Below are positions 12,200-41,378 of a stretch of DNA of 45,408 bases, piece by piece. The notes beneath the pieces were generated by a model, which was given only the letters and a program-made list of their open reading frames with translations, was not told the origin of the DNA and did no database searches. The stretch comes from Candidatus Pacearchaeota archaeon (GTDB taxonomy: Archaea > Nanobdellota > Nanobdellia > Pacearchaeales > GW2011-AR1), in NCBI GenBank assembly GCA_023137045.1, contig JAGLQB010000002.1, positions 1 to 45,408 on the forward strand, read 5' to 3'. The translations under genes and the position numbers were made by a program. Every line of letters begins with the position of its first letter. The stretch's first letter is position 1.

Positions 12200-12200
12200 A

Positions 12201-14517: not shown

Positions 14518-15912
14518 ATGAGACTGTTACTGATTACTCCTCCAAACACATCTAAAGAAGTATATGGCAAACTTTCAAGTGTTGGAACTTTATATCCTCC
14601 ATTAGGCTTAGCATACATTGCAGCTTATGCAGAAAAACAAGGACATGAAGTTAAGGTCATAGATGCAGGAGCAGAAAATTATGATTTTGAAGACATAAAC
14701 AAAATTGCTTTAAAATTCTGTCCAGATTTGGTTGGAATGCAGACATATTGTACAACATTAAATAAAGTTTACAAAATTGCAGAAAATTTAAAGAATATTA
14801 CAGATGCAAAAATTGTATTGGGGGGACCGCAAGCAACACTTGAACCTTCTAAAGCAATCTCAAATAAATATGTGGATTTTGTTATTTATGGAGAAGGAGA
14901 GAAAACTATTATAGAACTTTTATCTGCTTTAAAAAAAGGAAATTTTTCTAAGGTTCTCGGTTTAGTTTATAAAACTAAAGAAAAAATAAAAACAAATCCT
15001 CCAAGGCCTTTAATCCAAAACTTGGACGAAATTCCCCTCCCAGCAAGGCATCTTTTTCCAATGGAAAAATACCATTCGTCTGCTAATTTAAGAGGGAAAA
15101 AAACACTTAATATCATGACCTCAAGAGGTTGTCCTTACAGATGTGCTTATTGTGCAGGTTCTCTTATTTTTGGAAAAAATCATAGGTTTCATTCATCTGA
15201 AAGAGTTATAGAAGAGATGAAATTGTTAAAAGAAAAATATGGTGCAGATAGCATACAATTTTTTGATGAAACATTTACAGTAAATAGAAAAAGAGTAATA
15301 GAATTATGCGATAAAATGATTGAAGCAAAATTAGGTTTAGAATGGAGTTGCTTTACAAGGGTAAATCTGGTAGATGAAGAATTATTAAAAAAGATGAAAC
15401 AAGCAGGATGTTATTTGATTTTTTATGGTTTGGAATCTGGAGTACAAAGATTATTGGATTTAATAAAAAAAGATATAACACTGGAACAATCAGAAAAAGC
15501 AATGAAAATGACACATGAAGCAGGAATTGAAACATGGGTAAGTTTTATGTTGAATTTGCCTTCAGCAACAAAAAAAGAAGAAGAGCAAACTATTGATTTT
15601 GCTATAAAAGTTAATCCAACATTTGTCCAATTTCCAATAGCAACTCCTTATCCTGGGACAGAATTATATGACATAGCATTAAAACATGGAAAACTAAAAG
15701 AAAATTGGGAAGATTTCACAAGCTGGGATGAAATTGTTTTCACTCCTCATGGAAAAACAGAAAAAGAAATAAAAAACATAGTAAAAAAAGCATACAGAAA
15801 ATTTTATTTAAGACCTACTTACATTTTAAAAAGAATAAGGAGTATACTAAAACTTCCATTAAACAAATCTTTTGCTTTGATTAAAGTAGGATTGCTAACT
15901 TTTTTCACATAA
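14518..15912 (+). CDS. Cobalamin-binding-domain radical SAM enzyme (class B) #1
   Basis: The N-terminal Rossmann-like B12 domain (LLLITPP...PPLGLAYIAAYAEKQGHEVKVID...GGPQAT) is followed by the radical SAM core SRGCPYRCAYC, FFDETF and YGLESG. Confidence 0.85.
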   Translation: MRLLLITPPNTSKEVYGKLSSVGTLYPPLGLAYIAAYAEKQGHEVKVIDAGAENYDFEDINKIALKFCPDLVGMQTYCTTLNKVYKIAENLKNITDAKIVLGGPQATLEPSKAISNKYVDFVIYGEGEKTIIELLSALKKGNFSKVLGLVYKTKEKIKTNPPRPLIQNLDEIPLPARHLFPMEKYHSSANLRGKKTLNIMTSRGCPYRCAYCAGSLIFGKNHRFHSSERVIEEMKLLKEKYGADSIQFFDETFTVNRKRVIELCDKMIEAKLGLEWSCFTRVNLVDEELLKKMKQAGCYLIFYGLESGVQRLLDLIKKDITLEQSEKAMKMTHEAGIETWVSFMLNLPSATKKEEEQTIDFAIKVNPTFVQFPIATPYPGTELYDIALKHGKLKENWEDFTSWDEIVFTPHGKTEKEIKNIVKKAYRKFYLRPTYILKRIRSILKLPLNKSFALIKVGLLTFFT

Positions 15913-15913
15913 A

Positions 15914-16618
15914 ATGAAACTTTCAATAATTATCCCTGCATATAATGAAAAGAAAACTATAGATGAAATTATCAAAAGAGTAAAAGCTGTAAAAATATCA
16001 AAAGAAATAATTATCGTGGACGATTTTTCAACTGATGGAACAAGAGAATTTTTAAAAAATCTCCATGATCCTCAAATTAAGACATTTTTTCACAAAAAAA
16101 ATCACGGGAAAAGTCATGGAGTTAGGGTAGGAATAAAAGAAGCAAAAGGAGATATTATCATAATACAGGACGCAGATTTGGAATATGACCCAAAAGATTA
16201 CTCCAAACTAATTAAGCCGATTGAACAGGGAAAATCAAAAGTAGTATACGGAACAAGATTCCCAAAGAAAAAAGGACACCCTAGTTTATTGCATCCCTAT
16301 GAAATTTTAAGTAATCCTTTTTATTTTGCAAACAAAATTTTAACCACAATGGCAAATGTTCTTTACAATGCACATATAACTGATGAACCAACTTGCTACA
16401 AAGTTTTTGATGCCAAAGTGTTAAAATCACTAAATTTAAAATCAGAAAGATTTGAATTTTGTCCAGAGGTGACTGCAAAAGTCAGGAAAAAAGGTTATAA
16501 AATTTATGAAGTTCCGATAAGTTATAATCCAAGAACAGCTGAAGAAGGAAAAAAAATAAATTTCAAAGATGGTATTGAAGCAATATGGACTTTGATTAAA
16601 TACAGATTTATAAATTAA
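15914..16618 (+). CDS. GT2 glycosyltransferase, polyprenyl-phosphate sugar synthase type (DPM1/ArnC-like)
   Basis: LSIIIPAYNEKKTIDEII...IIIVDDFSTDGTREFL...IIQDADLEYDP. It is a short (234 aa) soluble GT-A of the Dpm1/ArnC type. Confidence 0.8.
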   Translation: MKLSIIIPAYNEKKTIDEIIKRVKAVKISKEIIIVDDFSTDGTREFLKNLHDPQIKTFFHKKNHGKSHGVRVGIKEAKGDIIIIQDADLEYDPKDYSKLIKPIEQGKSKVVYGTRFPKKKGHPSLLHPYEILSNPFYFANKILTTMANVLYNAHITDEPTCYKVFDAKVLKSLNLKSERFEFCPEVTAKVRKKGYKIYEVPISYNPRTAEEGKKINFKDGIEAIWTLIKYRFIN

Positions 16619-16622
16619 TAAA

Positions 16623-17150
16623 ATGGGAAAATTTGATACATTTATACAAACGAGAATTCTCAGACCAATTAGATTAAAGGCGATTTTAAAAATTTTATGC
16701 AAGATCCATCCTGGCACAATAATTGATTTAGGGTGTATGGATGATTATTTATTAAAGAGACTCCCAAAAAAATTTGATTATGTTGGTTATGACGAAAATC
16801 CTTTGTGTAAAAATGAAAAAATAATTAAGGGTAAAGTTGAAGATTTAACAAAAAATAAAAAATTTGATGTTGTCCTTTGCACAGAAGTGTTAGAACATGT
16901 TGATGACCCTGTGGAAGTCATGAGGAATTTAAAAAAATTATCAAAAAGATTTATTCTAATTTCAGTTCCTAATGAACCCTTTTTCTCTTTGGCAAGGTTG
17001 TTTATTCCAGCAAAAGAGCATTTGTGGACAATTTATCCTTGGGCCCTTGAAAAACATTTTGGGAAACCTATTTTCAAAAGAAAAGCATGTTTTCAAAGAA
17101 CTCATATCGCTTTATGGGACTTAAAAAATAGCAATAAAAACATCTCATAA
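16623..17150 (+). CDS. Class I SAM-dependent methyltransferase
   Basis: Motif I IIDLGCMDDY, and post-I/II FDVVLCTEVLEHVDDPVEVMRNL (Methyltransf_11-like). Confidence 0.75.
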   Translation: MGKFDTFIQTRILRPIRLKAILKILCKIHPGTIIDLGCMDDYLLKRLPKKFDYVGYDENPLCKNEKIIKGKVEDLTKNKKFDVVLCTEVLEHVDDPVEVMRNLKKLSKRFILISVPNEPFFSLARLFIPAKEHLWTIYPWALEKHFGKPIFKRKACFQRTHIALWDLKNSNKNIS

Positions 17151-17182
17151 ATCTTTAAAAATATCAATATTTCAGTAATTTC

Positions 17183-18583
17183 ATGAAGAAAGTACTTTTA
17201 ATGAATATGCCTTCTTGTATTAAAGTTTATGGGAAATCAGCCTTAAAAGGTATCATTGCTCCAAGACCTTTGGTTTCAATGGCAGAATTGGCAGGGTCAG
17301 TTTTGCATGCTGGAGGGGATTGTAAAATCTTAGATTTGCAGGTTGTAGAAAAACCATTCCATGAAATAGAAAAAACTCTCAATGAATACCAGCCTGATTT
17401 AGTTGGCTTAACTTTCACCACACTTTTGTTTGAAGAAGCTAAAAAAGTAGCAAAATTCATAAAAGAGAAATATCCTTCAACAAAAATAATTGCAGGAGGA
17501 GTCCACTCTTCTATTTATCCTGAAGAAGTAATTAAAGAAAAAAATATAGACATTGTGAGTATGGGTGAAGGAGATATAACTATTCAAGAAATAGTAAAAA
17601 ATAAATCTCTCAAAAATATTAAAGGAATTGTATACAAAGATAAAAAAGGAGAAATAAAAAAGAATTCCCCAAGAGAATTAATTAAAAATTTGGACGAGCT
17701 TCCAATGCCTGCGTGGCATCTCTTTAATGCAAAAATTTATATGAACCCCAAAGCAATTGCAAGAGAATCTCCAGTAGGAACAATTGGAACTTCAAGGGGC
17801 TGTGTTTATGGATGCATTTATTGTAACAAAAGTGTTTTTGGAAGAGCTTTCAGAGCAAAATCAGCCACAAGAGTTGTTGATGAATTTGAATTGCTTTTAA
17901 AGAATGGATTCAAGGAAATTCATGTTTGGGATGATATGTTTGCAACTAACCTTAAAAGAGCAAAAGAAATATGTGACGAGATAATAAAAAGAAGATTGAG
18001 GTTTACTTGGCAATTAGAATGTGGTGTGAGGGTTGATTGTGTGGATAGGGAATTTTTTGAAAAATGTGCAAAGGCAGGATGTTATAAAGTTGCTTTTGGA
18101 TTTGAATCTGGGAATGACCATATCTTAGAGTCAATAGGAAAAGGAGCAACAACGCAACAAGCAAGAAATGCTGTTAGATGGGCAAAACAAGCAGGAATGG
18201 AGACATCTGGGTTTTTTATGGTTGGATTACCTGAGGATACAAAAAAAACAATGGACCAAACAATTGATTTTGCATGTTCTCTTGGGCTGGATTATGCCAA
18301 GGCAACAATTTTAGTACCTTTACCTTCAACTCCTGTTTTTGAAGAATTTGAAAAAAAAGGTTTGCTGAAAACAAAAGATTGGAGCAAATACAATTTTCAT
18401 ACTGCGTCTAGGGTGTATGATCATCCCACTCTTGACTGGGAAACTTTGGGAAAATATTATGATAAGTTTCATAAAAAATTTTATTTTAGACCATCTTATA
18501 TTTTAAACAGATTGATTAGAAGCATCAAGAAAAAAGAACTTCTCGACGACATTAAGATGGCTTTCACTACATTTGTAAAATGA
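17183..18583 (+). CDS. Cobalamin-binding-domain radical SAM enzyme (class B) #2 (paralogue of 14518-15912)
   Basis: Collinear with #1: the B12-like N-domain, then SRGCVYGCIYC, VWDDMF, FGFESG and the shared C-terminus FYFRPSYILNR. Confidence 0.85.
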   Translation: MKKVLLMNMPSCIKVYGKSALKGIIAPRPLVSMAELAGSVLHAGGDCKILDLQVVEKPFHEIEKTLNEYQPDLVGLTFTTLLFEEAKKVAKFIKEKYPSTKIIAGGVHSSIYPEEVIKEKNIDIVSMGEGDITIQEIVKNKSLKNIKGIVYKDKKGEIKKNSPRELIKNLDELPMPAWHLFNAKIYMNPKAIARESPVGTIGTSRGCVYGCIYCNKSVFGRAFRAKSATRVVDEFELLLKNGFKEIHVWDDMFATNLKRAKEICDEIIKRRLRFTWQLECGVRVDCVDREFFEKCAKAGCYKVAFGFESGNDHILESIGKGATTQQARNAVRWAKQAGMETSGFFMVGLPEDTKKTMDQTIDFACSLGLDYAKATILVPLPSTPVFEEFEKKGLLKTKDWSKYNFHTASRVYDHPTLDWETLGKYYDKFHKKFYFRPSYILNRLIRSIKKKELLDDIKMAFTTFVK

Positions 18584-19935
18584 AAAAAAAAGTAATTATT
18601 TTGGGAGCAGGAATAACTGGATTAGTGACTGCTTATTATTTCTCACAAGATAAAGATTTTGAAGTAACACTTATAGAGAAAAATAAATATGTAGGAGGAA
18701 CAGCTATGGCGTTTGAATACAAAGATTTTATTTTGGATTATGGGCCTCATAAAATTTATACAGTTCTTCCAGGAATTATTAATGAAATAGAAAAAGTAAC
18801 TCCTTTGCTTAAAGTCAAGAAACAAAATAGTATTTACTTGAAAAATAATTTTTTTGATTTCCCTTTAAAAATCTCACAAATTGCACAGAAAATGCCGTTT
18901 ACTGCATTAAGTTCTGGAATTGACATTTTCACAAAAAGTTTTAGCAAACTACCTGACGATTCTTATGAGAATTTTTTGATAAATAGATTTGGAAAAACTA
19001 TGTATGAACTTGCCTTTAAAGATTATGCAAGAAAAGTTTGGACTTCTCATCCTCAGGAATTAGACAAGGAGCTTGCCATAAGAAGAGTGGCAATTTCAGG
19101 AGTTTTTGAATTAATTAAGGGAATCTTGTTTAAAGACACAGGAAAAATAAGTGCAGATTATTTTTATTATCCTCCAAAAGGAATAAAGCAACTTTTAGAT
19201 TCTTTAGTTAAAGAAATAAAAAAGAATAAGGGAAAAATTTTACTTCAAAAAGAAATATCAGAAATAAAACTTAAATCTCATAAAATTGATTATATTAAAA
19301 TAGGAAACAAAAAGATAAAACCAGATTATTTGATTTCAACAATTTATCTTGATAGTTTATTGGATTTAGTGAAAAATCAAAAAAATATAAATGAACAAAA
19401 AGAGATGGCAGGAAATTTGCACTACCAAAAACTAAATATCCTTTATCTAATTTTAAATAAAAAAAGAGCACTAAAAGATTGTTGGGTGTTTTTTCCAGAA
19501 AAAAAATTTCTATTTCATAGGATTAGTGAACAAAAGGCTTTTTCTGAGCAAACCTCTCCAGAAAATAAAACAGCATTAATGGTGGAAACTACAAAAGAAT
19601 TAAATGAATTAAATATAAATATCATAATACAGCAACTCAAATCAATAGGTATCTTAAATGAAAATGAAATTCAAGAATATTTTACTAAATCTTTGGACAG
19701 AGTTTATCCAATATACAAAAAAGGTTTTTTAAAAAATTTGCATTTCGCCTTAGACAAAGTAGAATCTATTGAAGATGTTTATACTATTGGAAGACCTGGT
19801 TTATTTAATTACAATAATATGGACCAATGTTGGGACATGGCCAAAAAAACATTTGAACATATAAAACAAGGAAAAACAAAACAAGATTGGCAAAAAACAA
19901 AAAATTACTTTGATAGCTATAGGATTGTTGATTAG
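18580..19935 (+). CDS. FAD/NAD(P)-binding oxidoreductase, UDP-galactopyranose-mutase/amine-oxidase-like
   Basis: N-terminal dinucleotide motif VIILGAGITGLVTAY...EKNKYVGG and a C-terminal GRPGLFNYNNMDQ motif resembling the Glf-type GRxxxYxYxxMD. ATGA overlap with the upstream gene. Confidence 0.65.
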   Translation: MKKKVIILGAGITGLVTAYYFSQDKDFEVTLIEKNKYVGGTAMAFEYKDFILDYGPHKIYTVLPGIINEIEKVTPLLKVKKQNSIYLKNNFFDFPLKISQIAQKMPFTALSSGIDIFTKSFSKLPDDSYENFLINRFGKTMYELAFKDYARKVWTSHPQELDKELAIRRVAISGVFELIKGILFKDTGKISADYFYYPPKGIKQLLDSLVKEIKKNKGKILLQKEISEIKLKSHKIDYIKIGNKKIKPDYLISTIYLDSLLDLVKNQKNINEQKEMAGNLHYQKLNILYLILNKKRALKDCWVFFPEKKFLFHRISEQKAFSEQTSPENKTALMVETTKELNELNINIIIQQLKSIGILNENEIQEYFTKSLDRVYPIYKKGFLKNLHFALDKVESIEDVYTIGRPGLFNYNNMDQCWDMAKKTFEHIKQGKTKQDWQKTKNYFDSYRIVD

Positions 19936-19987: not shown

Positions 19988-21055
19988 ATGTTACCTGTAA
20001 AAAATTTGAATACATATAATCTAGAGAACATAATTTCTTCGGATAAGGCTTTTAAACTAATTAAAAAATTCAAAGAAGGTGGAAAAACTATTGGTCTTTG
20101 TCATGGAGGATTTGACCTTCTTCATCCTGGTCAAGTAAAACATTTAGAATCTGCAAAAAATTTATGTGACATTTTATTTGTGTCTATAACCTCCGACAAA
20201 TTTGTAACCTGTAGAAAAGGTTCAGGCAGACCAATTTTTAATGATGTTTTAAGAGCATATATGGTTGGAAATTTAAAATTTGTAGATTATGTTGTGATTA
20301 CAGATTATAAATTAGGGGTTGATGTCATAGATAAGCTTAAACCTACCTATTACATTAAAGGTCCAGATTTTATTAATAAAAAAACACCTGGGATAGATTC
20401 AGAACGCCAGAAAATCAAAGATGTTGGGGGAGAAATAAAATACACTAATGACTCCAAATTATCTACGACAGAGATTATAGATTATATTAAAAATAAAGTT
20501 GATAAAAATAGACTTCTTCTTTGTATAGATAGAGATGGGACTTTAATAGAAGAACAAAATTTTCTTGGAAAAGACAAAGGTTGGGAAAATAAAATTAAGA
20601 TAAAAGAGAATATAATTAGTACAATTTCTTATTTACAAACGAAATATCAAACAACAAAAATAGTTATTAGTAATCAGGCAGGGGTTGCTAGAGGATACTT
20701 TACTTGTAATACTGTAAACAAAATAAATAATTATATCGACCATCTTTTAGAAAAAAGAGGTATAAAAATAGATGCATGGGAATATTGCCCTTATGTTGAT
20801 TCAGCATATGCAGAATCAAAGAAAAATGAAATCAAATTTGATACTAATTTTGTAAAGGATAAAACAAAAAGAAAACCCAATGGTCAAATGATGTTAGATG
20901 GTTTGCAAAAATTAGGAAGAGATATATCTGATTTTAGCCAGATAATTATTTTTGGAGATATGGCAGAAGATCAGATGTTAGCTAAAAAATTAAATGCAAT
21001 TTATATTGATGCAAGTATTGAGTATAACAAAGCAATAGAAAAAGTAGACTTTTAG
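19988..21055 (+). CDS. Bifunctional heptose-1-phosphate nucleotidyltransferase (RfaE domain II-like) / D,D-heptose 1,7-bisphosphate phosphatase (GmhB-like HAD)
   Basis: The N-terminal half has the HxGH-class cytidylyltransferase fold (GLCHGGFDLLHPGQVKHL). The C-terminal half, from about nt 20510, is HAD-IIIA (CIDRDGTLIE, ISNQAGVARGYF, KRKPNGQM, FGDMAEDQ). Confidence 0.75.
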   Translation: MLPVKNLNTYNLENIISSDKAFKLIKKFKEGGKTIGLCHGGFDLLHPGQVKHLESAKNLCDILFVSITSDKFVTCRKGSGRPIFNDVLRAYMVGNLKFVDYVVITDYKLGVDVIDKLKPTYYIKGPDFINKKTPGIDSERQKIKDVGGEIKYTNDSKLSTTEIIDYIKNKVDKNRLLLCIDRDGTLIEEQNFLGKDKGWENKIKIKENIISTISYLQTKYQTTKIVISNQAGVARGYFTCNTVNKINNYIDHLLEKRGIKIDAWEYCPYVDSAYAESKKNEIKFDTNFVKDKTKRKPNGQMMLDGLQKLGRDISDFSQIIIFGDMAEDQMLAKKLNAIYIDASIEYNKAIEKVDF

Positions 21056-21057
21056 TT

Positions 21058-21612
21058 TTATACTGTTTCTTTTAAGCAACAAGTTAAAAAGTGTCCAAAC
21101 ATACTATGGATATCTTCACAGATTTCATAAGAGTCAGATTGGATATGGGCAGAATAATCAGCAATTTTTTTGAGTTTTCCTCCATCAAATCCAGTAATTC
21201 CTATTACAATCATTTCAAGTTCTTTAGCATATTTAGCTCCTTTTATCACATTGGGGCTATTTCCTGAGGCAGAGATAAATATACTAATATCTTTAGGCGA
21301 GGCAAGATTAATTAATTGTTGTCTAAACACTTCATCATAAAAAGAATCATTGGATATTGCAGTTAAATAAGATATATTATTAGATAAGCTTATAACTTTG
21401 TATCTTGTAAAATTCTTTTCCCAATTTTTGTTAGCACCTTTTGATAAATCACATGCGTAATGATTTGCCGTGGAAGCACTACCACCATTTCCAGCCACAA
21501 AAATTTTTTGATTATTTTTTATTGAGTCTTTCAAAACCTGTAAAATTTCTTCATCAAATTCAAAAATGTCTAATGCTTTTTTTATACTTGATTTATATTC
21601 ATTCCAGTTCAT
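21058..21612 (-). CDS. gmhA: Phosphoheptose isomerase (SIS domain)
   Basis: FVAGNGGSASTANHYACDL, ISASGNSPNV and a C-terminal His-containing helix are typical of GmhA. Confidence 0.8.
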   Translation of the reverse strand: MNWNEYKSSIKKALDIFEFDEEILQVLKDSIKNNQKIFVAGNGGSASTANHYACDLSKGANKNWEKNFTRYKVISLSNNISYLTAISNDSFYDEVFRQQLINLASPKDISIFISASGNSPNVIKGAKYAKELEMIVIGITGFDGGKLKKIADYSAHIQSDSYEICEDIHSMFGHFLTCCLKETV

Positions 21613-21613
21613 T

Positions 21614-22618: not shown

Positions 22619-22687
22619 GTTTTTTTGCTTCTAAATTATTAGTTTGAAAAATAATTTATAAAGATTTATATGAAAAAATATTGGTAT

Positions 22688-29191: not shown

Positions 29192-29192
29192 A

Positions 29193-31704: not shown

Positions 31705-31705
31705 C

Positions 31706-32332: not shown

Positions 32333-32333
32333 T

Positions 32334-33392: not shown

Positions 33393-33538
33393 TTTTAAAA
33401 GATATGTTTCATTTGGTATCAAAACAAATTTATAAATTTATATGTGCTGGATTAATAATCCTTTTGAATTGGTGGTGAATTACAATAATGTTTATATATT
33501 TTTTATCACAAAAATATGAATCTCTTTTAAAGAAAAAT

Positions 33539-34414
33539 ATGAAAACTAAAGAAATTAATGGAATCTTAATTTTAGGAGCGTCTGGGCTTATTGGAAGATA
33601 TACATTTGATCATTTAAAAAAACAAGGTAAAAAAGTCATTGGGACTTTTTATAAAAATAAAAATCCAGAATTAATATATTTTGATGTTGTTAAATCGCCA
33701 ATTAATGAGCTTCCTATCAAAGGTTTAGAGTTGGCCATTATATGTTCTGCAATCTCAAAAATAGATGAATGTAAAAAAGATGTAGGATATTCTCAACAGG
33801 TTAATGTGGAAAACTTGAAGAGAAGTATATATCAATTATCCGAAAAGAATATTGTTCCAGTTTTTATATCTTCAGCAGCTGTTTTTGATGGGGTTTTGGG
33901 AGGATACAAAGAAGATAATATAAGAAACCCCATAAATATTTATGGTAAACAGAAATTAGAAGTAGAAGATTTTATTTTAAAAAATTTTGAAAAATATCTA
34001 ATAGTTAGGATAGAAAAGGTTTTTGGAATAAGAAAAGGGGAGGGGCTTTTTGCAGATTGGATTCTGAAATATAAAAATAAGGAAAAAATTTTTTGTGCAG
34101 ATGACGAAGTATTCTCTCCCACATATGTAGGAGATGTTGCTCAAGGACTTGGCAAACTAATAGAAAAAGGCATGGAAGGAGTGTTTCACATAACCCCTCA
34201 AAATTATTGTAATAGATATGAATTAGCTATAAACTTTTTTGATTATTTAAAAATTAAAGATGCAAGAATAGTAAAATGCTCCTTGGATGATTTTAATTTT
34301 TTAGACAAGAGATCAAAAAATTCCCACTTGGATGGATCCAGATTTATTAAAGAAACGGGACTTAGATTTACTCCTTTAGAAGAATGTTATGAGTATATTA
34401 AAAAACAAATTTAG
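33539..34414 (+). CDS. RmlD-like NAD(P)-dependent sugar 4-ketoreductase (SDR)
   Basis: ILILGASGLIGRY, SSAAVFDG..GGYKEDN, and PINIYGKQKLEVE (YxxxK). The start is taken at the internal ATG (MKTKEING); the track start is 33488. Confidence 0.7.
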   Translation: MKTKEINGILILGASGLIGRYTFDHLKKQGKKVIGTFYKNKNPELIYFDVVKSPINELPIKGLELAIICSAISKIDECKKDVGYSQQVNVENLKRSIYQLSEKNIVPVFISSAAVFDGVLGGYKEDNIRNPINIYGKQKLEVEDFILKNFEKYLIVRIEKVFGIRKGEGLFADWILKYKNKEKIFCADDEVFSPTYVGDVAQGLGKLIEKGMEGVFHITPQNYCNRYELAINFFDYLKIKDARIVKCSLDDFNFLDKRSKNSHLDGSRFIKETGLRFTPLEECYEYIKKQI

Positions 34415-34551
34415 CATTTTCTTACTATTTTACCAATTATTTTTAAAATTTTTATATATTTAGTCATTTATTTTGTTTCTTAAATAGATTCAATCAAATT
34501 TATGCAATATAATAGCATAATTTTTATATACTGTCTTTTAAGATAATTTAA

Positions 34552-35625
34552 ATGGCAGACACAAACCCTAATTATAGTTCTTTGAAAATAGTTTGGCATA
34601 AAAAAAAACTCGAATCTTTATTAAAGAATGAGATTACTGCACCAATAACAGTCAGAGTCAAACCTACAAATAAGTGCAACCACAATTGTTTTTATTGTGG
34701 TTATCAAAAAGATAAAGAACAAATTCTTTCTGAAACTTTTAGAAAAAAAGACGAAATTCCTAGGGAAAAAATGATGGAGATTTTAGATGATTTTAATGAT
34801 ATCGGTGTAAAAGCCGTTACTTATTCTGGAGGTGGAGAACCATTAATTTATCCTTATATTTTAGAAGCAATGAAAAAAACTATCGGTTTTGGAATAGATT
34901 TATCCATTATAACAAATGGACAAGAACTCAATGATGAAAAAGCAGAAATCTTGGCCCAATCAGAATGGGTAAGAATATCTATAGATGCTTGCAATGCTGA
35001 AACTTTTAATAGAATTAGAAAGAAACCCCAAAAGTGGTTTTATGAAATTAGGGATAATATTAAAAATTTTTCAAAAATAAAAAAACAAGATTGCGAATTA
35101 GGAATTAATTTTGTTGTTAATCATTTGAATGCTTCTTCAGTCTATGAAGCCACAAAATACTTTAAACAATTGGGAATAAATCATATAAAATTTACACCGA
35201 GATGGTTACAGACAAATTTTCATGCATATCATCAGCCATTTAAACAATCAGTAATAGAGCAGATTTCTCAAGCAAGAGAACTTGAAGAAGCAAATTTTCA
35301 GGTATATGACACTTATGAGAATGATTTTAAATTTGCTGGAGTTAAAGAAAGAAGTTACCAAAGATGTTTTTTTATGGAAATTACTCCAGTTATTGGGGCA
35401 GATTGCAATATCTATGATTGTCATGATAGGGCTTACACATTGGACGGAAAAATTGGTTCAATACAAGATAAATCTTTCAAACAAGTTTGGTTTAGTGAAA
35501 AGACCGCAAACAGATTTAAGAGTTTTAATCCGATTGAAAGATGTAAACATCATTGTACTTATGATGCGAGAAATCTCTTAGTAGAAAATATTTTAAAATG
35601 CAGCAAAAGCAAAAATTACCCCTGA
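34552..35625 (+). CDS. Radical SAM enzyme with Cys-rich C-terminal region, non-B12 type B (paralogue of 32334-33392)
   Basis: PTNKCNHNCFYCGY, YSGGGEPLI, IITNG and RISIDA, with C-terminal DCNIYDC...CKHHC. It is collinear with the other non-B12 rSAM. Confidence 0.8.
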   Translation: MADTNPNYSSLKIVWHKKKLESLLKNEITAPITVRVKPTNKCNHNCFYCGYQKDKEQILSETFRKKDEIPREKMMEILDDFNDIGVKAVTYSGGGEPLIYPYILEAMKKTIGFGIDLSIITNGQELNDEKAEILAQSEWVRISIDACNAETFNRIRKKPQKWFYEIRDNIKNFSKIKKQDCELGINFVVNHLNASSVYEATKYFKQLGINHIKFTPRWLQTNFHAYHQPFKQSVIEQISQARELEEANFQVYDTYENDFKFAGVKERSYQRCFFMEITPVIGADCNIYDCHDRAYTLDGKIGSIQDKSFKQVWFSEKTANRFKSFNPIERCKHHCTYDARNLLVENILKCSKSKNYP

Positions 35626-36278
35626 TGGAAAAAATAGATTTATTACAACGACCACAAATAAAGAGAAATTTTGATCCAAATTGGAGAAAAGAAAAAAATA
35701 GAATTCTCGCAAAAAAATTTGATAAAGAATTTTTTGATGGCAAAAGAGTTAATGGTTATGGGGGTTATGTTTATGATGGGAGGTGGATAGGTGTTGCACA
35801 AAGATTAAAAAAAATCTACAAATTAAATGAAAAGAGTTCTTTCTTAGATATCGGATGCGGAAAGGGTTTCCTTTTATATGACTTAAAAGAGATTATTCCT
35901 AGAATAAATATTTCTGGGATTGATATTTCAAAATATGCTATTGAAAATGGGATGGAAGAAATAAAACCATACTTATCTATTGGGAGTGCAGAAAACCTTC
36001 CATATGCAACTAACTCTTTTGATTTTGTTTTTTCATCAGATACTATCCATAATCTGCCAAGAAAAAAATGTAAAAAAGCACTCCAAGAGATGGTAAGGGT
36101 TTGTAAATCTGAAGGAAATATGTTTATCCAAATTGATGCGTATACAACTAGAGAGGAAAAAATGGATTTGGATGCTTGGAACTTAACTGCCTTGACATAT
36201 ATGCATGTTGATAAATGGTTGGATTTTTTTAAAGAAGTTGGATATAAAGGAGACTATTTTTGGACAATAATGAGATAA
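35598..36278 (+). CDS. Class I SAM-dependent methyltransferase
   Basis: FLDIGCGKGFLLYDL (motif I) and FDFVFSSDTIHNL. The alternative start at 35625 forms a TGATG junction with the upstream rSAM gene. Confidence 0.75.
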   Translation: MQQKQKLPLMEKIDLLQRPQIKRNFDPNWRKEKNRILAKKFDKEFFDGKRVNGYGGYVYDGRWIGVAQRLKKIYKLNEKSSFLDIGCGKGFLLYDLKEIIPRINISGIDISKYAIENGMEEIKPYLSIGSAENLPYATNSFDFVFSSDTIHNLPRKKCKKALQEMVRVCKSEGNMFIQIDAYTTREEKMDLDAWNLTALTYMHVDKWLDFFKEVGYKGDYFWTIMR

Positions 36279-37469
36279 TTAGAGATAATTATTTGAATTC
36301 TTTGATTTAATGCATTTCTCGAAAAAGTCTTCTAATCTTGGTAAATTTTTTTCTATATTGTAGTCTTCTCTCGCTCCAATTACTTTTTTCTCTAATTTTT
36401 TATAGTTTATTTTTTTTAGTTTTAATCTTAAATTATTAAGGTCTTTTTTGGAAACACCTAAATTTATTTTATACTTTTTTAAAATTTTATCTTGATACTC
36501 TAATAGAGAACTCCAATAGATAAGGGGTATCCCTGCTTCTAGATATGAAGCCATTTTATTTGAAGTACAAGTAGTAACTATTTCTTTATTCAATATTTTA
36601 AGATCATACATAGGAAAACTGTACCCAAAGTCATATTTAGAAATTTCTTTAACAATTTCAGTCGGTCCTAATGGCTTATGCAAATGAAAATATCTATTTT
36701 TTAATAATGCCTTATATTTTTTAGAATGTTTGATAGAATTATACTGCCCACTGTAAATATGTAAATGCATTTTTTGTTTTAATAATATTGTACTTATGGA
36801 GTCTTTGTCTGATTCTAAATCAGATGAAGCTAAGCTTCCCATACTGCCAACATAAACCAAATGTATCTCTTTATCTTTTTTAGATAATTTATTTTTATTT
36901 ATTGGAACTACAAACTCTTTAGAACAGTAAGGAGGAAAACTTATTACTGGGCATTTAATCTTAATTTTTTTCTTTACAAATTCATACTCTCCTCCTTTAA
37001 AGATTATCCCGTCAGAGTTTTCAAATAAATATTTCTCAGCTTTTAATTCAAAAATTGGAATTCCTGCTTTTTTATAATCTTCTTTTTTTCTATACTTTAA
37101 AGCATTTACATCGTAAGGGAAAAAAATAAAAGGGATATTTTTTATAATTTTTCTTGTTAAAGCAGGTAACCATAAGGGGTAAGGTGCAGCTGTTCCTATA
37201 ACTACATAAGGATTTAATTTTTTTATTTCAAATATTTTTCTTAGAATTTGTGGACTTTTTTTTATTAGATTTATCCCATTTTTAATATTTATACTAAATG
37301 AGTCTAAATTCAAATCTATGATTTTATCATAAGCTGATTTATAAAAATCTTTATTGAACTTTAAGAAACTAATCAAAACTATTTCGTATCCTTTTTCTTT
37401 TAATGCTCTGGCCCTCTTAAAACCAACTATATTCGGGCTTGCTTCAACAAAAACTATCTGTTTTTTCAT
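36279..37469 (-). CDS. Hypothetical protein, two-Rossmann (GT-B-like) architecture; possible glycosyl- or phospho-transferase
   Basis: 396 aa. The N-terminal beta-alpha-beta region (IVFVEASPNIVGFKRARALKEKGYEIVLI) and the C-terminal half (HLVYVGSMG..., NKMASYLEAGIPLIYW) recall GT-B enzymes. No catalytic motif could be confirmed. Confidence 0.35.
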   Translation of the reverse strand: MKKQIVFVEASPNIVGFKRARALKEKGYEIVLISFLKFNKDFYKSAYDKIIDLNLDSFSINIKNGINLIKKSPQILRKIFEIKKLNPYVVIGTAAPYPLWLPALTRKIIKNIPFIFFPYDVNALKYRKKEDYKKAGIPIFELKAEKYLFENSDGIIFKGGEYEFVKKKIKIKCPVISFPPYCSKEFVVPINKNKLSKKDKEIHLVYVGSMGSLASSDLESDKDSISTILLKQKMHLHIYSGQYNSIKHSKKYKALLKNRYFHLHKPLGPTEIVKEISKYDFGYSFPMYDLKILNKEIVTTCTSNKMASYLEAGIPLIYWSSLLEYQDKILKKYKINLGVSKKDLNNLRLKLKKINYKKLEKKVIGAREDYNIEKNLPRLEDFFEKCIKSKNSNNYL

Positions 37470-37470
37470 C

Positions 37471-39072
37471 TTAAAAATTATGTCTGATTTTAGAATAATA
37501 TTTTTTAAAAATACTTAGTATTGGATAATAATTATTCTCTACTTTTTTAAGAAAACTCACCATGCGATAACGCATTTTACATTCCCTGCACATAATAAAA
37601 TAACTGTAAAGTAATCTATTTTTAATGCAAAAATTTTTATACAATATTTCCTTTTTACAATAAGGGCATTTAATCTTCACTTCATAATTATTTTCTTTAA
37701 TTTTCTTTACTGATAAGGGAATTATGTATTTACGATATTTTCTTTGTGCTTTAAAGATTTCATGTTTAACAATCTCAAATTCTTTATCAGTCATACTATT
37801 AGTCATATTCTCCCAAATGCCTGAATACATCTTATTTGCTATAAAGTCTAATTTGTTTTTTATTATTCTTTTTTCTATACAATGCTCATAAATAGAACTT
37901 TTTGGGTATGGTTGGATAAAATATAACGAAACTTGGCCCTTACATTTTTTCTTCCAATAATCAAGTGTTTCGTAAGCAGTTTCTCTGGTTTCTGCAATAT
38001 CTCCAAAAATAAAATTTGCTTGAATACCCATCTTAAACTCAAAAGACAGATTAATCACTTTATCAATTTGTTGAGGTGTTATTGGTTTTTTCATACTTTT
38101 AAGAATTGTCGAACTCATACTTTCAAATCCCCAACTTACTATTTCACATCCAGCTTCTTTTATTGTTTTAAACATTTCTCTATCTGCATTTATTACAGAT
38201 AATTGGCAACTCCATTTAAGTTTTTGTTTAGTTTCTCTTTGAAGTTTTTTAATTTCTCGACAAAATTCATATAATCTTTTTTTATTAATTGAGAATAAAT
38301 CATCATAAAGAAGAAGACAATTGATTTTATAATTTTTTATGGCCATTTTAATTTCTTCTATAATATTTTTAATAGATCTTATTCTATGTTTATCTCCAAG
38401 AACATGATAACAAAAAGTGCAGTTGAAAGGACATCCCCTACTCCCAAGTATTGAATAAGATTTAGGATTATCAAGTAAATTATTAACAAAATGTTCATTT
38501 GTGTGCATATTATTAATTTGTTCTTTAATTCCGAAATTCTCAAAATTTGGGAAAGGTATAGAATCAAGATTAGTTATTAAAGTCCGTTTATTAGTAGAGC
38601 AAACTTTGTTTTCCTCAAAGAATATGATTCCATCAACTTTTTCTAAATTTCCTTTTTTTTCTAAACATTTCAAAAGTTCTATTATGGTTACTTCCCCTTC
38701 TCCGATTATCCCAAAGTCGGGTTTTAATGAATTAAACATTAATGTTGGTTCACTTGTTATTATAGCCCCCCCTAAGATTATTTTTGGTTTTGATACATGA
38801 GAACGAACAGAGTCTATAATTTCTTTAACTACATTATAACCAATTCCAGAATGTCCTGTTAAAATAAAATCATATCGTTTTTTATCTAAAAAATTCTTTA
38901 TTATATTTTTGATAGTTCCATCATGATGATTCAAATTTAAAATATCTGGATTATGCCCTTCTTTTTTTAAAACAGCAGAAATATAACCCAATCCTAATGG
39001 AAATGTATAATTATAATCAATTTTATTTGTATTATTATATCTTGGAACAATCAACAGCAATCTCATTTTCAT
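37471..39072 (-). CDS. Cobalamin-binding-domain radical SAM enzyme (class B) #3 with C-terminal zinc-ribbon tail
   Basis: B12-like N-domain (LLLIVPR...FPLGLGYISAVLKKEGHNPDILN...GGAIITS), then SRGCPFNCTFCYH, LYDDLF and WGFESM. The C-terminus has CPYCKK-x19-CRECK. Confidence 0.85.
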   Translation of the reverse strand: MKMRLLLIVPRYNNTNKIDYNYTFPLGLGYISAVLKKEGHNPDILNLNHHDGTIKNIIKNFLDKKRYDFILTGHSGIGYNVVKEIIDSVRSHVSKPKIILGGAIITSEPTLMFNSLKPDFGIIGEGEVTIIELLKCLEKKGNLEKVDGIIFFEENKVCSTNKRTLITNLDSIPFPNFENFGIKEQINNMHTNEHFVNNLLDNPKSYSILGSRGCPFNCTFCYHVLGDKHRIRSIKNIIEEIKMAIKNYKINCLLLYDDLFSINKKRLYEFCREIKKLQRETKQKLKWSCQLSVINADREMFKTIKEAGCEIVSWGFESMSSTILKSMKKPITPQQIDKVINLSFEFKMGIQANFIFGDIAETRETAYETLDYWKKKCKGQVSLYFIQPYPKSSIYEHCIEKRIIKNKLDFIANKMYSGIWENMTNSMTDKEFEIVKHEIFKAQRKYRKYIIPLSVKKIKENNYEVKIKCPYCKKEILYKNFCIKNRLLYSYFIMCRECKMRYRMVSFLKKVENNYYPILSIFKKYYSKIRHNF

Positions 39073-39083
39073 ATTAATATTCT

Positions 39084-41378
39084 TTAATCAATTCCCCCAA
39101 CTTTTCTTAAAATTTCCTCTATCTCTTTTTCATCCATTCTTTTTGTTATATCTGAAGTGAATGGCCTATATGGAGAGCGATTTAATCCTTGATTACTATG
39201 AAGTTTAATTATAAATTTTCCATCTTTTTCCATTGTATCTTTACATTCAAAATCTGCAATTAAGCACTCATCTTTTTTTTCTCCGGGTCTCTCGCCAATA
39301 ACTTTTACTGGAACTTTCCCTCTACTCACAACCTTAGCCACATCTCCAATAAGGGCAGCATCCATTTTTGTTGAAATTATCTCTTCTTCATTTCCATTAC
39401 ATAACGCATAGAAAATTAAGTCTATGGAATCATCCAAAGTAAATAAAAATCGTGTCATGTTTGGATCTGTAACCCCTATCTCTGTATTTCTTTCATATTT
39501 TTCTTTCCATTTTGGAATTACAGAACCAGTAGTCATCAACACATTTCCATACCTTACAGTCAGAAATTTTGTTTTTAAATCTCCTTTTGTCCTTGCTGCT
39601 TCACAGAAAAGTCTTTCCATGAGAGATTTACTCATACCATACACATTTATCGGAGCACAAGCTTTGTCTGTGGAAATTGCCAAACAAATCTTTACATTTT
39701 TTTCATCTTTGACAGCATTAATCACATTCATAGAACCTATAACATTTGTTTTCAAACATTCCATAACTTGGTCTTCAGCAATATCCACATACTTAAATGC
39801 AGCAGCATGTATTACAATATCAACTTCTCTTACCGCATCTCTTATTGAGTGATAGTCTTTTATATCTCCTATAAGGTACCCCATTTTGTTATGCCCATGT
39901 CTTTTTTTAACTTTGTCCTGTTTTTCTTCATCTCGATTGAAGATTATTATTTTTTTAGGATCATATTCAAGAAATCTTTTAATAAGAGCTCGCCCTAAAG
40001 CACCTGCTCCCCCTGTAATAAGGATTGTTTTGTCTTTGATTATTTCTTTAATTTTTTCTATCTCTGTTTCATTCTGATTTAGATTAGTATCAAAAAATAA
40101 GGGGTTATCTCTTCCGATTGTGTGGCTTGCAGGTTTATATTTAGCCACTATTCTCTCCCTCTCTTTTAATAATTGCTCAGAAGATAAAGCTTTTGTTCTG
40201 ATTTTTGATTCTGTTTTTCCCCCTGCATGTATGTATGCAAATGCCTCCCCTTCCATAAAAATATCCAAATCTGGATTGCCTTTATCTAGTCCCTCTCTTA
40301 TCGCTGTCCCTTTAAATGGCGCATAAACAGCTATTTGAAAATCATCTATCCCACTTTCACGAATGAATTTCTCTGTTTCTTTGATAGTTTCCATTGTTTC
40401 TCCAGGGAGACCAAGCATGAAAAAAGCTCTAACTCTTATTCCTCGTTCTTTCATCAATCTCACAAAATTGTAATTTTGTTCAACAGTTGTTTGTTTTTTA
40501 ACATTATCTAATATTTTTTGGCTCCCTGATTCTGCTCCAAATCCTATCTCTACACATCCTGTATTAGCCAACAAATCTGCAAATTCCTCATCCATAAACT
40601 TTGCATGCCCATTGCATTTGTAAGTTATTCCTCTTTTTTTTAGTTCTTCTACATAAGGTTTCACACTGTTCAATGAAAGAGTAAATAAATCATCAATTAT
40701 ATAAATTCCATTAAAACCTAATGCTTCTATATCATCAAACTCTTTTTTTGCATTTTCAAGAGAGGTTTTTCTTATCGGAGTATTAGAATTCTCACAAAAA
40801 GTACATTGCATTGGGCATCCCCTACCACTTAAAAAAGTTGTTGCTTTTCGTTTATCTTTACCAAAAGTATGGGTATATGATCTCATTAAATTTGAAAATC
40901 CCAATCTATCTGGCCGAGGCATTGAATCATAATCTTCACCATTTTTTATGATATCAAATAAAATTCTTTGATTAGCTCTACCTTCAACTATTTCAAGCAA
41001 AGATCTTTCCCCGTCCCCTGTTATAATATAATCCCAAGGTTCTTCTTTAATCTCATTAAGGTAAAAATGTGCATGAGGACCTCCTGCCACAATGATTTGC
41101 TGTTTTTGGGTTTTTAATTCTGTTTTTAAATAATTCAATAATTTGCTTGCTTGCTGTTTTTGAGGAGTCATTATACTAACTCCAATAACATCATAGATAG
41201 AATAATCAATTATTTTTTGTTCTTGAGAATCATTAAAAGCATCTTCTATATCTACATGATGTCCATGTTTTTTCAGATTTGCTGCAAGATATAGTAATCC
41301 CATTGGCGGATAAATTCTGTCATTATCTAAAAAAGGACTCCTTAAACTTACCAACAGGACTCTTTTGTTTTTTTCCAT
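39084..41378 (-). CDS. Fusion protein: class B (cobalamin-domain) radical SAM enzyme #4 + CapD/PseB/FlaA1-type nucleotide-sugar 4,6-dehydratase
   Basis: Residues 1-~425 (nt ~40100-41378): PPMGLLYLAANLKKHGHHVDIED, GGPHA, GRGCPMQCTFC, IIDDLF and FGAESG. Residues ~450-764 (nt 39087-~40031): ILITGGAGALGRA, NRDEEKQ, HAAAFKYVDIAE, TNVIGSMNV, STDKACAPINVYGMSKSLME and RYGNVL. Confidence 0.85.
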   Translation of the reverse strand: MEKNKRVLLVSLRSPFLDNDRIYPPMGLLYLAANLKKHGHHVDIEDAFNDSQEQKIIDYSIYDVIGVSIMTPQKQQASKLLNYLKTELKTQKQQIIVAGGPHAHFYLNEIKEEPWDYIITGDGERSLLEIVEGRANQRILFDIIKNGEDYDSMPRPDRLGFSNLMRSYTHTFGKDKRKATTFLSGRGCPMQCTFCENSNTPIRKTSLENAKKEFDDIEALGFNGIYIIDDLFTLSLNSVKPYVEELKKRGITYKCNGHAKFMDEEFADLLANTGCVEIGFGAESGSQKILDNVKKQTTVEQNYNFVRLMKERGIRVRAFFMLGLPGETMETIKETEKFIRESGIDDFQIAVYAPFKGTAIREGLDKGNPDLDIFMEGEAFAYIHAGGKTESKIRTKALSSEQLLKERERIVAKYKPASHTIGRDNPLFFDTNLNQNETEIEKIKEIIKDKTILITGGAGALGRALIKRFLEYDPKKIIIFNRDEEKQDKVKKRHGHNKMGYLIGDIKDYHSIRDAVREVDIVIHAAAFKYVDIAEDQVMECLKTNVIGSMNVINAVKDEKNVKICLAISTDKACAPINVYGMSKSLMERLFCEAARTKGDLKTKFLTVRYGNVLMTTGSVIPKWKEKYERNTEIGVTDPNMTRFLFTLDDSIDLIFYALCNGNEEEIISTKMDAALIGDVAKVVSRGKVPVKVIGERPGEKKDECLIADFECKDTMEKDGKFIIKLHSNQGLNRSPYRPFTSDITKRMDEKEIEEILRKVGGID

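Follow-up and report, generated by a model that had tools for sequence, protein, structure and literature searches.

Six radical SAM proteins of several families, probable sugar-tailoring enzymes, in an apparent surface-glycan gene island of a DPANN archaeon

The window analyzed here, the whole stretch of 45,408 nucleotides of contig JAGLQB010000002.1, encoded six intact radical S-adenosylmethionine (rSAM) proteins that are very likely to be glycan- or sugar-tailoring enzymes. Conserved gene order and gene fusions tied at least four of the six to sugar-building enzymes, orthologs of the four class B proteins and of S1 (see below) being linked to glycan genes in other genomes, and the fusions, of rSAM domains to a reductase, to family 2 glycosyltransferases (GT2) and to methyltransferases, support such roles. 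It is somewhat probable, as a combined statement, that the window represents a gene island for the synthesis of cell-surface glycans in a Nanoarchaeota-, Woesearchaeota- or Pacearchaeota-like archaeon of the DPANN group and that its rSAM proteins tailor the sugars. Four of the proteins, labeled W1–W4, were class B rSAM enzymes, as was W7 outside the window, and S1 and S2 had a SPASM/twitch-like C-terminus; L and P numbers denote loci read for comparison and homologous proteins, respectively. The six genes, listed with product lengths in amino acids (aa), were found where a preliminary description of the sequence had placed them, each with the CxxxCxxC motif quoted there:

14518-15912, + strand: W1, 464 aa, CPYRCAYC at residue 205
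17183-18583, + strand: W2, 466 aa, CVYGCIYC at residue 207
32334-33422, - strand: S1, 362 aa, CNHKCIFC at residue 51
34552-35625, + strand: S2, 357 aa, CNHNCFYC at residue 42
37471-39072, - strand: W3, 533 aa, CPFNCTFC at residue 214
39084-41378, - strand: W4, 764 aa, CPMQCTFC at residue 188

The CxxxCxxC motif was present in exactly six of the 44 main open reading frames (ORFs) of the window, and the six genes covered 8.9 kb of a 26.9-kb interval. With a chance of ~4e-4 per ~400-residue protein at ~1% cysteine, and with domain E-values of 1e-16 to 1e-24, the occurrence of the motif here is not due to chance. All six proteins matched Pfam Radical_SAM (PF04055, 61.5–86.9 bits; gathering cut-off 29.5). 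Class B architecture was confirmed for the four W proteins by a B12-binding domain N-terminal to the rSAM core (PF02310; W1 84.1, W2 59.3, W3 48.2 and W4 52.7 bits; cut-off 32.1) and by AlphaFold models and Foldseek searches of W1 and W4. S1 and S2 matched the SPASM domain (PF13186; 37.9 and 25.7 bits; cut-off 21.5), with four C-terminal cysteines in S1, enough for one cluster and thus twitch-like, and six in S2, compared to seven in the two-auxiliary-cluster motif. The preliminary description had taken the four class B proteins as paralogs, and S1 and S2 as two further Cys-rich paralogs. The shared class B layout held, but close paralogy did not: identity was 36.5% for W1/W2, 38% for W1/W7, 31% for W1/W3, 25–28% for W4 against the rest and 23% for S1/S2, and the class B proteins fell into at least three orthologous groups with different partners. 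Judged from their sequences, the six represent several distinct families and no recent paralogs.

Dense clustering of rSAM genes was also found elsewhere. L007 carried four class B genes in 15 kb, L090 carried two class B and three other rSAM genes within 9 kb, and among the matches listed for distant relatives of W1 (80 loci) there were at least two class B paralogs in 31 loci and at least three in 14, with up to seven. Two bacterial contigs from metagenome-assembled genomes (MAGs), L013 and L051, contained seven and six class B paralogs within ~17 kb, which is denser than in the window. Inteins (PF14890/PF07591) occurred in P0092, P0097, P0113, P0197 and P0411, homologs of three class B families (W4, W1 and W3).

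W4 was a fusion protein, a feature that the preliminary description had overlooked. Residues 1 to ~440 comprised the class B rSAM part, and residues 448–729 a domain resembling the PseB/FnlA-like uridine diphosphate (UDP)-N-acetylhexosamine (HexNAc) 4,6-dehydratases (Pfam Polysacc_synt_2, 266.6 bits; PseB TIGR03589, 270 bits, cut-off 407.75; FnlA TIGR04130, 231 bits, cut-off 730). This domain scored 207–224 bits against solved members of the PseB/FnlA/CapE/WbjB group, and it contained TGGAGALG, STDKA and YGMSK, the motifs looked for being TGxxGxxG and TDK together with YxxxK (PseB) or MxxxK (FnlA/CapE). As in the pathways that combine PseB or FnlA with an RmlD-like 4-reductase, a reductase gene of that type was adjacent to W4:

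41479-42417, + strand: RmlD-like 4-ketoreductase, partner of W4 (Pfam, 208 bits)

The same fusion of rSAM and 4,6-dehydratase was found in P0001, 82% identical to W4. In P0002 (51% identical), a W4-type rSAM was instead fused to an RmlD-like reductase, 59% identical to the product of 41479-42417, and at this locus (L006) the next gene was 72% identical to the W4 dehydratase domain, with orthologs of a family 4 glycosyltransferase (GT4) of the window (63%) and of its 396-aa protein (56%; see below) in the flanks. Because two independent fusions join the W4-type rSAM to consecutive short-chain dehydrogenase/reductase (SDR) steps of one route, there is strong evidence, given the predicted functions of these domains, that it acts in a 6-deoxy-HexNAc pathway. 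In this module C (39084-42417), the dehydratase domain of W4 would make UDP-4-keto-6-deoxy-HexNAc. The class B domain would act on this compound before or after its reduction, C4 being reduced by the neighboring RmlD-like enzyme.

Other relatives of the rSAM half of W4 were stand-alone proteins of ~425 aa, 45–67% identical, from named Nanoarchaeota, Thorarchaeota and Omnitrophota. In L003 (Omnitrophota) and L004, the W4 ortholog lay between NeuB and a gene of the cytidine monophosphate (CMP)-nonulosonic acid synthetase type. A scan of metagenome contigs yielded 80 loci with W4-type genes (35–62% identical, neighbors within 4 kb), in which the recurrent neighbors were nucleoside diphosphate (NDP)-sugar SDRs (19 loci), GT4 (16), GT2–methyltransferase fusions (14), GT17 (9), NeuB (8), GT2 (6) and GT11 with a methyltransferase (6); at least one of these was present in 36 of the 53 loci with at least four neighboring ORFs. 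The association of W4-type genes is thus the broader one, with NDP-sugar SDRs and glycosyltransferases. A role of the W4 family specifically in nonulosonic acid synthesis was rejected as a general rule, NeuB being found in only 7–8 of the 80 loci. Neither NeuB nor a CMP-transferase was found in the window or in L001, and, unlike PseB-based and nonulosonic acid pathways, the window also contained no aminotransferase.

W1 and W2 belonged to a run of genes, here called module A (10383-19935), with the following members besides the rSAM genes:

10383-12199, + strand: short UDP-glucose dehydrogenase-like gene (291 aa) and SDR nucleotide-sugar dehydratase/decarboxylase-like gene (Pfam, NCBIfam)
12201-12674, + strand: small membrane protein, four transmembrane segments by hydropathy, placed where a GtrA/ArnE-type flippase would stand (no family match)
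12661-14469, + strand: GT-C glycosyltransferase (PMT_2, ArnT/Pmt-like, ~9 transmembrane segments; Pfam PF13231, 83 bits)
15914-16618, + strand: GT2 of the polyprenyl-phosphate-sugar synthase type (AglJ/PpgS/ArnC-like; Pfam, 122.6 bits)
16623-17150, + strand: S-adenosylmethionine (SAM)-dependent methyltransferase, partner of W1 (Pfam Methyltransf_23)
18580-19935, + strand: flavin adenine dinucleotide (FAD)-dependent oxidoreductase, amine-oxidase/UDP-galactopyranose-mutase-like (Pfam, NCBIfam)

W1 orthologs (49–59% identical) adjoined a GT2 gene in all three loci read (L007, L008 and L009). In L007, a 536-kb Nanoarchaeia contig, the order was Ppd, cytidylyltransferase/phosphoenolpyruvate (PEP) mutase (66%), class B rSAM, cytidylyltransferase (66%) and cytidine diphosphate (CDP)-alcohol transferase, followed by PMT_2 (41%), the W1 ortholog (59%), GT2 (62%) and a methyltransferase, and then by the FAD enzyme (41%), a class B rSAM, the W2 ortholog (53%) and GT4. 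L009 showed the order rSAM, W1 ortholog (55%), GT2, methyltransferase and FAD enzyme (34%), and L008, a 4.3-Mb contig, the order GT2, W1 ortholog (49%), class B rSAM, sulfatase, rSAM, GT2 and nucleoside triphosphate (NTP)-transferases. The methyltransferases of L007 and L009 were likewise Methyltransf_23 proteins in the equivalent position, with no BLAST match to the product of 16623-17150, and in P0181 a W1 ortholog was fused to a methyltransferase domain. The W1 family was very large (5038 matches at E<=1e-10 among the candidates scored).

Like the Gtr and Arn systems, module A combined a protein with four transmembrane segments, a polyprenyl-phosphate-sugar-type GT2 and a PMT_2 GT-C in one operon, and UDP-glucose dehydrogenase-like and SDR genes preceded these, as in the Arn pathway. 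The product of 12201-12674 was 40% identical to a conserved 154-aa neighbor in L090, and the best NCBIfam models for the GT2 were AglJ, PpgS and ArnC, all polyprenyl-phosphate-sugar synthases and all below cut-off. Unlike Gtr and Arn systems, module A carried two class B rSAM genes, a methyltransferase and an FAD enzyme, and Arn and Gtr cut-offs were not reached. The genes at 10383-12199, which scored 194 bits on the NDP-sugar dehydrogenase model TIGR03026 (cut-off 189.8), presumably supply the precursor. The dehydrogenase-like product of 10383-11258 (+) kept GxGxxG and GGKCFPKD, lacked the whole C-terminal UDP-binding domain, and may be a truncated or minimal form of UDP-glucose dehydrogenase. 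In the mechanism proposed for module A, a three-component system of the Gtr/Arn type, the GT2 would make a polyprenyl-phosphate-linked sugar for use by the GT-C. W1, W2, the methyltransferase and the FAD enzyme would modify this sugar either in its nucleotide-bound form or, if HpnI/HpnJ is taken as a model, once it is on the lipid carrier, and the GT-C would then deliver the modified sugar outside the cell.

The analogy with HpnI/HpnJ could extend to the reaction itself, W1 and/or W2 being ring-contraction enzymes like HpnJ or Cds that turn the product of the GT2, a lipid-linked hexose or hexosamine, into a carbocycle of the cyclitol type. Among curated families, W1 (251 bits) and W2 (228 bits) scored best on HpnJ (TIGR03471, cut-off 577.6), nearly over their full length, and next on BchE, ApyD and the Sden_1168/PhpK P-methyltransferases; W3 was also best on HpnJ and BchE (140 and 137 bits), and W4 scored 108 bits on HpnJ. 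Moreover, the conserved GT2 adjacency of W1 parallels HpnI-HpnJ, and HpnI/HpnJ and Cds resemble module A in that a GT2 stands beside a class B-type rSAM enzyme that remodels a lipid-linked sugar. The scores of W1 and W2 were, however, less than half of the cut-off, no hopanoid gene was found among the window ORFs by Pfam and NCBIfam, and the window contained neither glycerol dialkyl glycerol tetraether (GDGT) genes nor an HpnK-like deacetylase. To judge from the GT-C and the small membrane protein, what is delivered would be a sugar on a carrier and not a lipid head group. HpnJ also co-clusters with the methylases Fom3 and MoeK5 in a similarity network (PMC9204698), so its likeness is not reaction-specific, and the chemistry of HpnJ and Cds, whose roles have been described, is itself only genetically inferred (PMC13459092). 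Ring contraction by W1 or W2 is therefore considered distinctly unlikely, and the resemblance to HpnJ would place W1–W3 near sugar- or phosphonate-acting enzymes, a placement that does not fix the reaction.

The remaining rSAM genes, W3, S1 and S2, lay in module B (30312-39072) together with:

31180-32332, - strand: pair of short thiamine-diphosphate enzymes that accompanies S1, one E1beta-like (186 aa) and one E1alpha-like (208 aa) (Pfam, NCBIfam)
33488-34414, + strand: RmlD-like NDP-4-keto-sugar reductase (Pfam RmlD_sub_bind, 132.5 bits; rmlD, 121.8 bits, cut-off 224)
35598-36278, + strand: SAM-dependent methyltransferase (Pfam Methyltransf_11)
36279-37469, - strand: conserved 396-aa protein of unknown family (no Pfam match; a weak precomputed match to Gtf3_C, a glycosyltransferase-like hint)

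S1 was 60–85% identical to family members in many Nanoarchaeota and Pacearchaeota (DPANN) MAGs. Both L090 and L091 contained an S1 gene (62%) followed by E1alpha-like (70–78%) and E1beta-like (64–66%) genes. W3 orthologs (47–48%) accompanied S1 in both loci, in two copies in L091, together with further rSAM/SPASM genes and a NUDIX gene. L090 also carried an ortholog of the window's flippase (49%), and L091 an ortholog of the methyltransferase of 35598-36278 (49%). In P0340, an S1 ortholog (60%) was fused to a methyltransferase of this same type (55%). Orthologs of the 396-aa protein adjoined W3- or W4-type genes, in L006 as given above and in L090 (38%). The W3 family comprised 3433 clusters (at 50% identity) with E<=1e-30, and relatives 36–39% identical to W3 were fused to GT2 domains (with or without TPR) or GT1-like domains (P0419, P0433 and P0422). 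A scan of genome contigs with W3 alone found no relative. S2 is the least characterized of the six rSAM proteins.

S1, an rSAM protein with a four-cysteine C-terminus, resembles BtrN, DesII and BlsE, sugar-acting rSAM enzymes with a twitch or SPASM cluster. The best PDB match of S1 was BtrN, a weak similarity confined to the rSAM core (E=7e-8); PDB sequence matches of S1 and S2 were weak overall and included the sugar-acting BtrN and BlsE as well as MoaA, SkfB and PqqE. E1-like pairs add two-carbon branches to 4-keto sugars in the AviB1/AviB2 and Pau11/Pau12 systems (PMC4425429). S1 was likewise always followed by an E1alpha/E1beta-like pair, as such pairs occur in these branched-octose clusters; the subunits here are shorter (208 and 186 aa, compared to ~325 and 345 aa), and pairing of an rSAM enzyme with E1 has not been described for the known clusters. 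L003:970-4300 (Omnitrophota) held a full-length transketolase-like gene followed by a gene for a 464-aa class B rSAM, in a nonulosonic-acid-type cluster with three class B rSAM genes, and this constitutes a second case of a thiamine enzyme paired with an rSAM protein in a glycan locus. In module B, radical oxidation or dehydration would yield a keto-sugar, a two-carbon branch from pyruvate would be added as by AviB1/AviB2, and reduction and methylation would follow. Within this scheme, S1 would generate a keto or radical intermediate, to which the E1-like pair would add the branch.

Whether the class B enzymes use cobalamin bears on the chemistry of all modules. In structurally defined class B members, cobalamin is bound base-off and His-off, and the diagnostic residues are a Gly-Gly pair on beta4 and a Gly-Glu pair where alpha5 begins, DxHxxG being a "red herring" (PMC9204698). 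None of the five class B proteins on the contig lacked either motif (VLGGPQ/YGEGE in W1, IAGGVH/MGEGD in W2, ILGGAI/IGEGE in W3, VAGGPH/TGDGE in W4 and VFGGAH/KGEGE in W7). In the family alignments of W1 (GG at residues 102–103 and GEGE at 125–128) and W4 they were invariant or nearly so, and the motifs aligned with those of the cobalamin methylase MgmA. The AlphaFold model of W1 (mean predicted local distance difference test, pLDDT, 91.8; predicted template-modeling score, pTM, 0.90) gave whole-length Foldseek matches to AprD4 (6fd2, the top match, template-modeling score 0.76), MgmA, TsrM, OxsB, CysS and TokK. The rSAM half of W4 also had AprD4 as its top match (score to target 0.71) and likewise matched MgmA, TsrM, OxsB and CysS over its whole length, TokK being matched by W1 only. 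The model of the whole of W4 was good in the rSAM half only, with pLDDT <50 over long stretches of the SDR half because the alignment was shallow there, and the packing of the domains could not be read from it. The class B fold of the W1 and W4 models and the conserved motifs fit cobalamin use by W1–W4, of which fold and motifs alone are no proof, as AprD4 shows.

AprD4, a diol dehydratase that is not known to use cobalamin, hands a keto-sugar to the SDR reductase AprD3 in the C3' deoxygenation of the apramycin pathway. Some or all of W1–W4 might likewise be radical 1,2-diol dehydratases that work without cobalamin and pass a keto-sugar to an SDR reductase. Besides being the top structural match of W1 and of the rSAM half of W4, AprD4 was the top PDB sequence match of W1 and W3. 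The W4-type rSAMs, fused to or located beside RmlD-like ketoreductases, mirror the logic of AprD4/AprD3, an rSAM enzyme paired with an SDR reductase on an amino sugar, and an archaeon with a reduced genome would then have no need of cobalamin for them. The sequence alignment with AprD4 covered the rSAM core only, however, its N-terminal domain not being alignable, whereas the N-terminal domains of the window proteins aligned with the cobalamin binders MgmA, OxsB, TokK and TsrM and kept the GG and GE cobalamin-tail motifs across families. Scores on the AprD4 model NF033070 were W1 135.9, W2 95.1, W3 56.7 and W4 73.8 bits, far from its cut-off of 500, and the substrate of AprD4 is a pseudodisaccharide rather than a nucleotide sugar. 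Such a dehydration is a live rival to methylation, although an unlikely one.

For the class B domains, methylation of unactivated sugar carbons via methylcobalamin, as by GenK, GenD1, MoeK5 and Fom3, would be the likeliest reaction. Like W1–W4, these enzymes and Fms7 have a Rossmann B12-type domain with a CxxxCxxC core and GG/GE motifs and belong to sugar pathways, and for both sets action at unactivated carbons is presumed. GenK-type enzymes serve antibiotic tailoring in actinomycetes. W1–W4, in contrast, lie in an archaeal primary surface-glycan island with flippase, GT-C and nucleotide-sugar genes, and their families include fusions to nucleotide-sugar enzymes or glycosyltransferases; the placement relative to Fom3, GenK, MoeK5, HpnJ and Cds was made with NCBIfam scores and PDB matches as proxies. 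That the class B enzymes act mainly by cobalamin-dependent C-methylation is plausible, somewhat short of probable. The preliminary description had foreseen an extensively C-methylated or rearranged product, which may be so but was put too firmly there. A fuller proposal is that these are new cobalamin-dependent rSAM families acting on nucleotide- or polyprenyl-phosphate-linked sugars, with W4 as a combined UDP-GlcNAc 4,6-dehydratase and C-methylase, with W3, S1 and the E1-like pair building a branched higher-carbon sugar, and with heavily C-alkylated DPANN envelopes made at the expense of host B12. We put this forward tentatively, and in all its parts together it is rather doubtful. The W4 product would then be a C-branched or chain-extended 6-deoxy-hexosamine and, in other phyla, conceivably a C-methylated nonulosonic acid.

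The preliminary description had also favored methylation of a phosphonate by one of the rSAM enzymes, and the window indeed contained a phosphonate operon:

25460-30320, + strand: phosphonate module of cytidylyltransferase, Fom1-like cytidylyltransferase and PEP mutase fusion, phosphonopyruvate decarboxylase, NTP-transferase and Fe-alcohol dehydrogenase (Pfam, NCBIfam)
30312-31103, - strand: membrane protein with weak similarity to CDP-alcohol phosphatidyltransferases (Pfam E=7.6e-4, below the gathering threshold; three transmembrane segments)

With PEP mutase at 381.1 bits (TIGR02320, cut-off 319.55) and phosphonopyruvate decarboxylase at 460.2 bits (TIGR03297, cut-off 312.5), 25460-30320 is, by its predicted functions, a gene set for nucleotide-activated 2-hydroxyethylphosphonate. 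Two cytidylyltransferase-like domains stood in a row at 25460-27299 (+), one forming a 179-aa protein by itself and one at the N-terminal end of the fusion with PEP mutase. A third nucleotidyltransferase lay at 28478-29191, and each of the three may play a part of its own in activating the phosphonate. The product of 30312-31103, 27% identical to that of a CDP-OH_P_transf gene beside the phosphonate operon of L007, is a candidate phosphonate or alcohol-phosphate transferase.

A Fom3-like enzyme among W1–W4 would methylate cytidylyl-2-hydroxyethylphosphonate and give a 2-hydroxypropylphosphonate decoration. The Fom1-like fusion, the phosphonopyruvate decarboxylase and the Fe-alcohol dehydrogenase are consistent with this, and L007 has a 466-aa class B rSAM inside the orthologous operon (L007:718-3968), between the cytidylyltransferase and cytidylyltransferase/PEP mutase genes, with module A directly beside it. 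No rSAM gene was present within 25460-30320, however, where 25460-25999 adjoins 25989-27299 directly and no remnant of such a gene lies at the junction. The embedded L007 enzyme was Sden_1168-like (366 bits) and had only paralog-level matches here, to W7 (35%), W1 (33%) and W2 (29%), and thus no ortholog among W1–W4. Its nearest relative, W7, is a seventh class B rSAM of 503 aa at L001:3323-4834, equivalent to window positions 46545-48056 (-) and ~1.1 kb past the window end, next to a set of a second PMT_2 GT-C, a GT2 and a Methyltransf_23 gene. The best curated match of W7 was the Sden_1168 P-methyltransferase (273 bits). On the same model (NF038361, cut-off 575) W1 reached 189.8 bits and W2–W4 at most 126; W1 was also the best of the window on PhpK (TIGR04479, 158.9 bits, cut-off 600), and PhpK was the best model for the rSAM half of W4 (115.5 bits). 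Finally, W1, W3 and S1 also kept their partners where the 7-kb flanks read contained no phosphonate gene (L008, L009, L090 and L091). Phosphonate methylation in this organism is possible and is not indicated for W1–W4, among which a Fom3-like enzyme is improbable. From the difference between L007 and the window, it seems that an rSAM for phosphonate tailoring was gained or lost in one lineage only.

It could also be that the rSAM genes act in the modification of lipids, cofactors or RNA and lie near glycan genes by chance. Partial matches to the lipid B12-rSAM model TIGR04072 (92–158 bits for W1–W4, W1 highest; cut-off 360), weak partial MiaB-type matches, matches of S1 and S2 to the tungsten-cofactor maturase and MoaA, and GDGT-MAS among the weak PDB matches of S1 would fit this explanation. 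The curated NCBIfam cut-offs were nonetheless reached by none of the six: scores on BchE, methyl-coenzyme M reductase (MCR) glutamine methylase, BzaD, HpnR, TsrM, KedN5 and the ladderane-type lipid B12-rSAM were well under them, and S1 and S2 scored best on the tungsten-cofactor maturase and viperin models (84–97 bits; cut-offs 380 and 180). Given the fusions to dehydratase, reductase, glycosyltransferases and methyltransferases and the conserved synteny, a non-glycan role is highly improbable.

Several observations weigh against sugar tailoring as laid out here. The reaction types are extrapolated from distant relatives, with 17–23% identity to solved structures, and the best structural match of W1 and W4 is a cobalamin-free dehydratase rather than a methylase. 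Synteny was drawn from two to four hand-picked long contigs per orthologous group, and no S2 ortholog occurred in the ~170 loci fetched. NeuB accompanied the W4 family in only 7–8 of 80 loci, as noted. The more distant W1 relatives (30–44% identical) had mixed contexts, with GT2 nearby in 19 of the 80 loci among the matches listed; such relatives say little about the orthologous groups. Furthermore, no glycan structure is known for this lineage.

The class B enzyme class and sugar tailoring by rSAM enzymes are already known; the families, their placement in primary surface-glycan loci and their fusions to nucleotide-sugar enzymes and glycosyltransferases are new. Literature searches covering nonulosonic, pseudaminic and legionaminic acids, DPANN and Woesearchaeota glycan loci, and C-methylation of polysaccharide nucleotide sugars found no report on these rSAM families in the library searched, nor was any report found of a UDP-GlcNAc 4,6-dehydratase fused to an rSAM enzyme. 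To our knowledge, nearly all sugar-tailoring class B rSAM enzymes described so far belong to antibiotic pathways. Rather than being a singular system, the locus exemplifies a widespread uncharacterized pattern, and its chemistry is conjectural. It reveals large uncharacterized families built into the surface-glycan pathways of DPANN archaea and other uncultured lineages, and the fusions to nucleotide-sugar enzymes and GT2 hint at the likely substrates, usually the main obstacle to reconstitution. If C-methylation or branching of nucleotide sugars were true, the known repertoire of glycan building blocks would be wider, part of the unusual surface chemistry expected at the symbiont–host interface would be explained, and organisms thought unable to make cobalamin would depend on it.

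Glycan-type gene content extended over 10.4–44.5 kb of the window. As the preliminary description had stated, Pfam and NCBIfam identified nucleotide-sugar enzymes, glycosyltransferases, methyltransferases and the phosphonate core around the rSAM genes, and in addition a Wzx flippase. The features outside the three modules and the phosphonate operon were:

19988-23743, strand not assigned for the set as a whole: heptose nucleotide-sugar set of adenylyltransferase and GmhB-like phosphatase fusion, GmhA-like isomerase, HldE-type kinase and SDR epimerase (NCBIfam, all matches under the equivalog cut-offs)
23804-25351, + strand: Wzx-type flippase (Pfam Polysacc_synt; 14 transmembrane segments)
42414-44539, - strand: GT4 and GT2 glycosyltransferases (Pfam)

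The G+C content was ~30% across the whole window, and no signature of a foreign island was seen. The archaeal RNA polymerase subunit D and the ribosomal proteins S11, S4 and S13 were encoded at 127-2407, and the closest named homologs of W1, W4 and S1 came from MAGs of Nanoarchaeota, Woesearchaeota, Nanoarchaeia and Pacearchaeota, which together make the attribution to a DPANN archaeon a reasonable one. The sole ABC transporter of the window (3555-6400) was MacB/FtsX-like, not Btu-like. A 5S rRNA gene and three tRNA genes were located downstream of the genes at 127-2407, followed by SecF and SecD. ORF 6767-7321 (-) is almost certainly no gene, because the 5S rRNA gene (7060-7174, -; Rfam, 68.7 bits) lies within it. 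Between tRNA-Leu (7236-7321) and tRNA-Gly (7810-7882), ARAGORN placed a 91-nt tRNA at 7671-7761 (+), with an "anticodon" of four bases and without an assigned amino acid; this is probably an archaeal tRNA that contains an intron.

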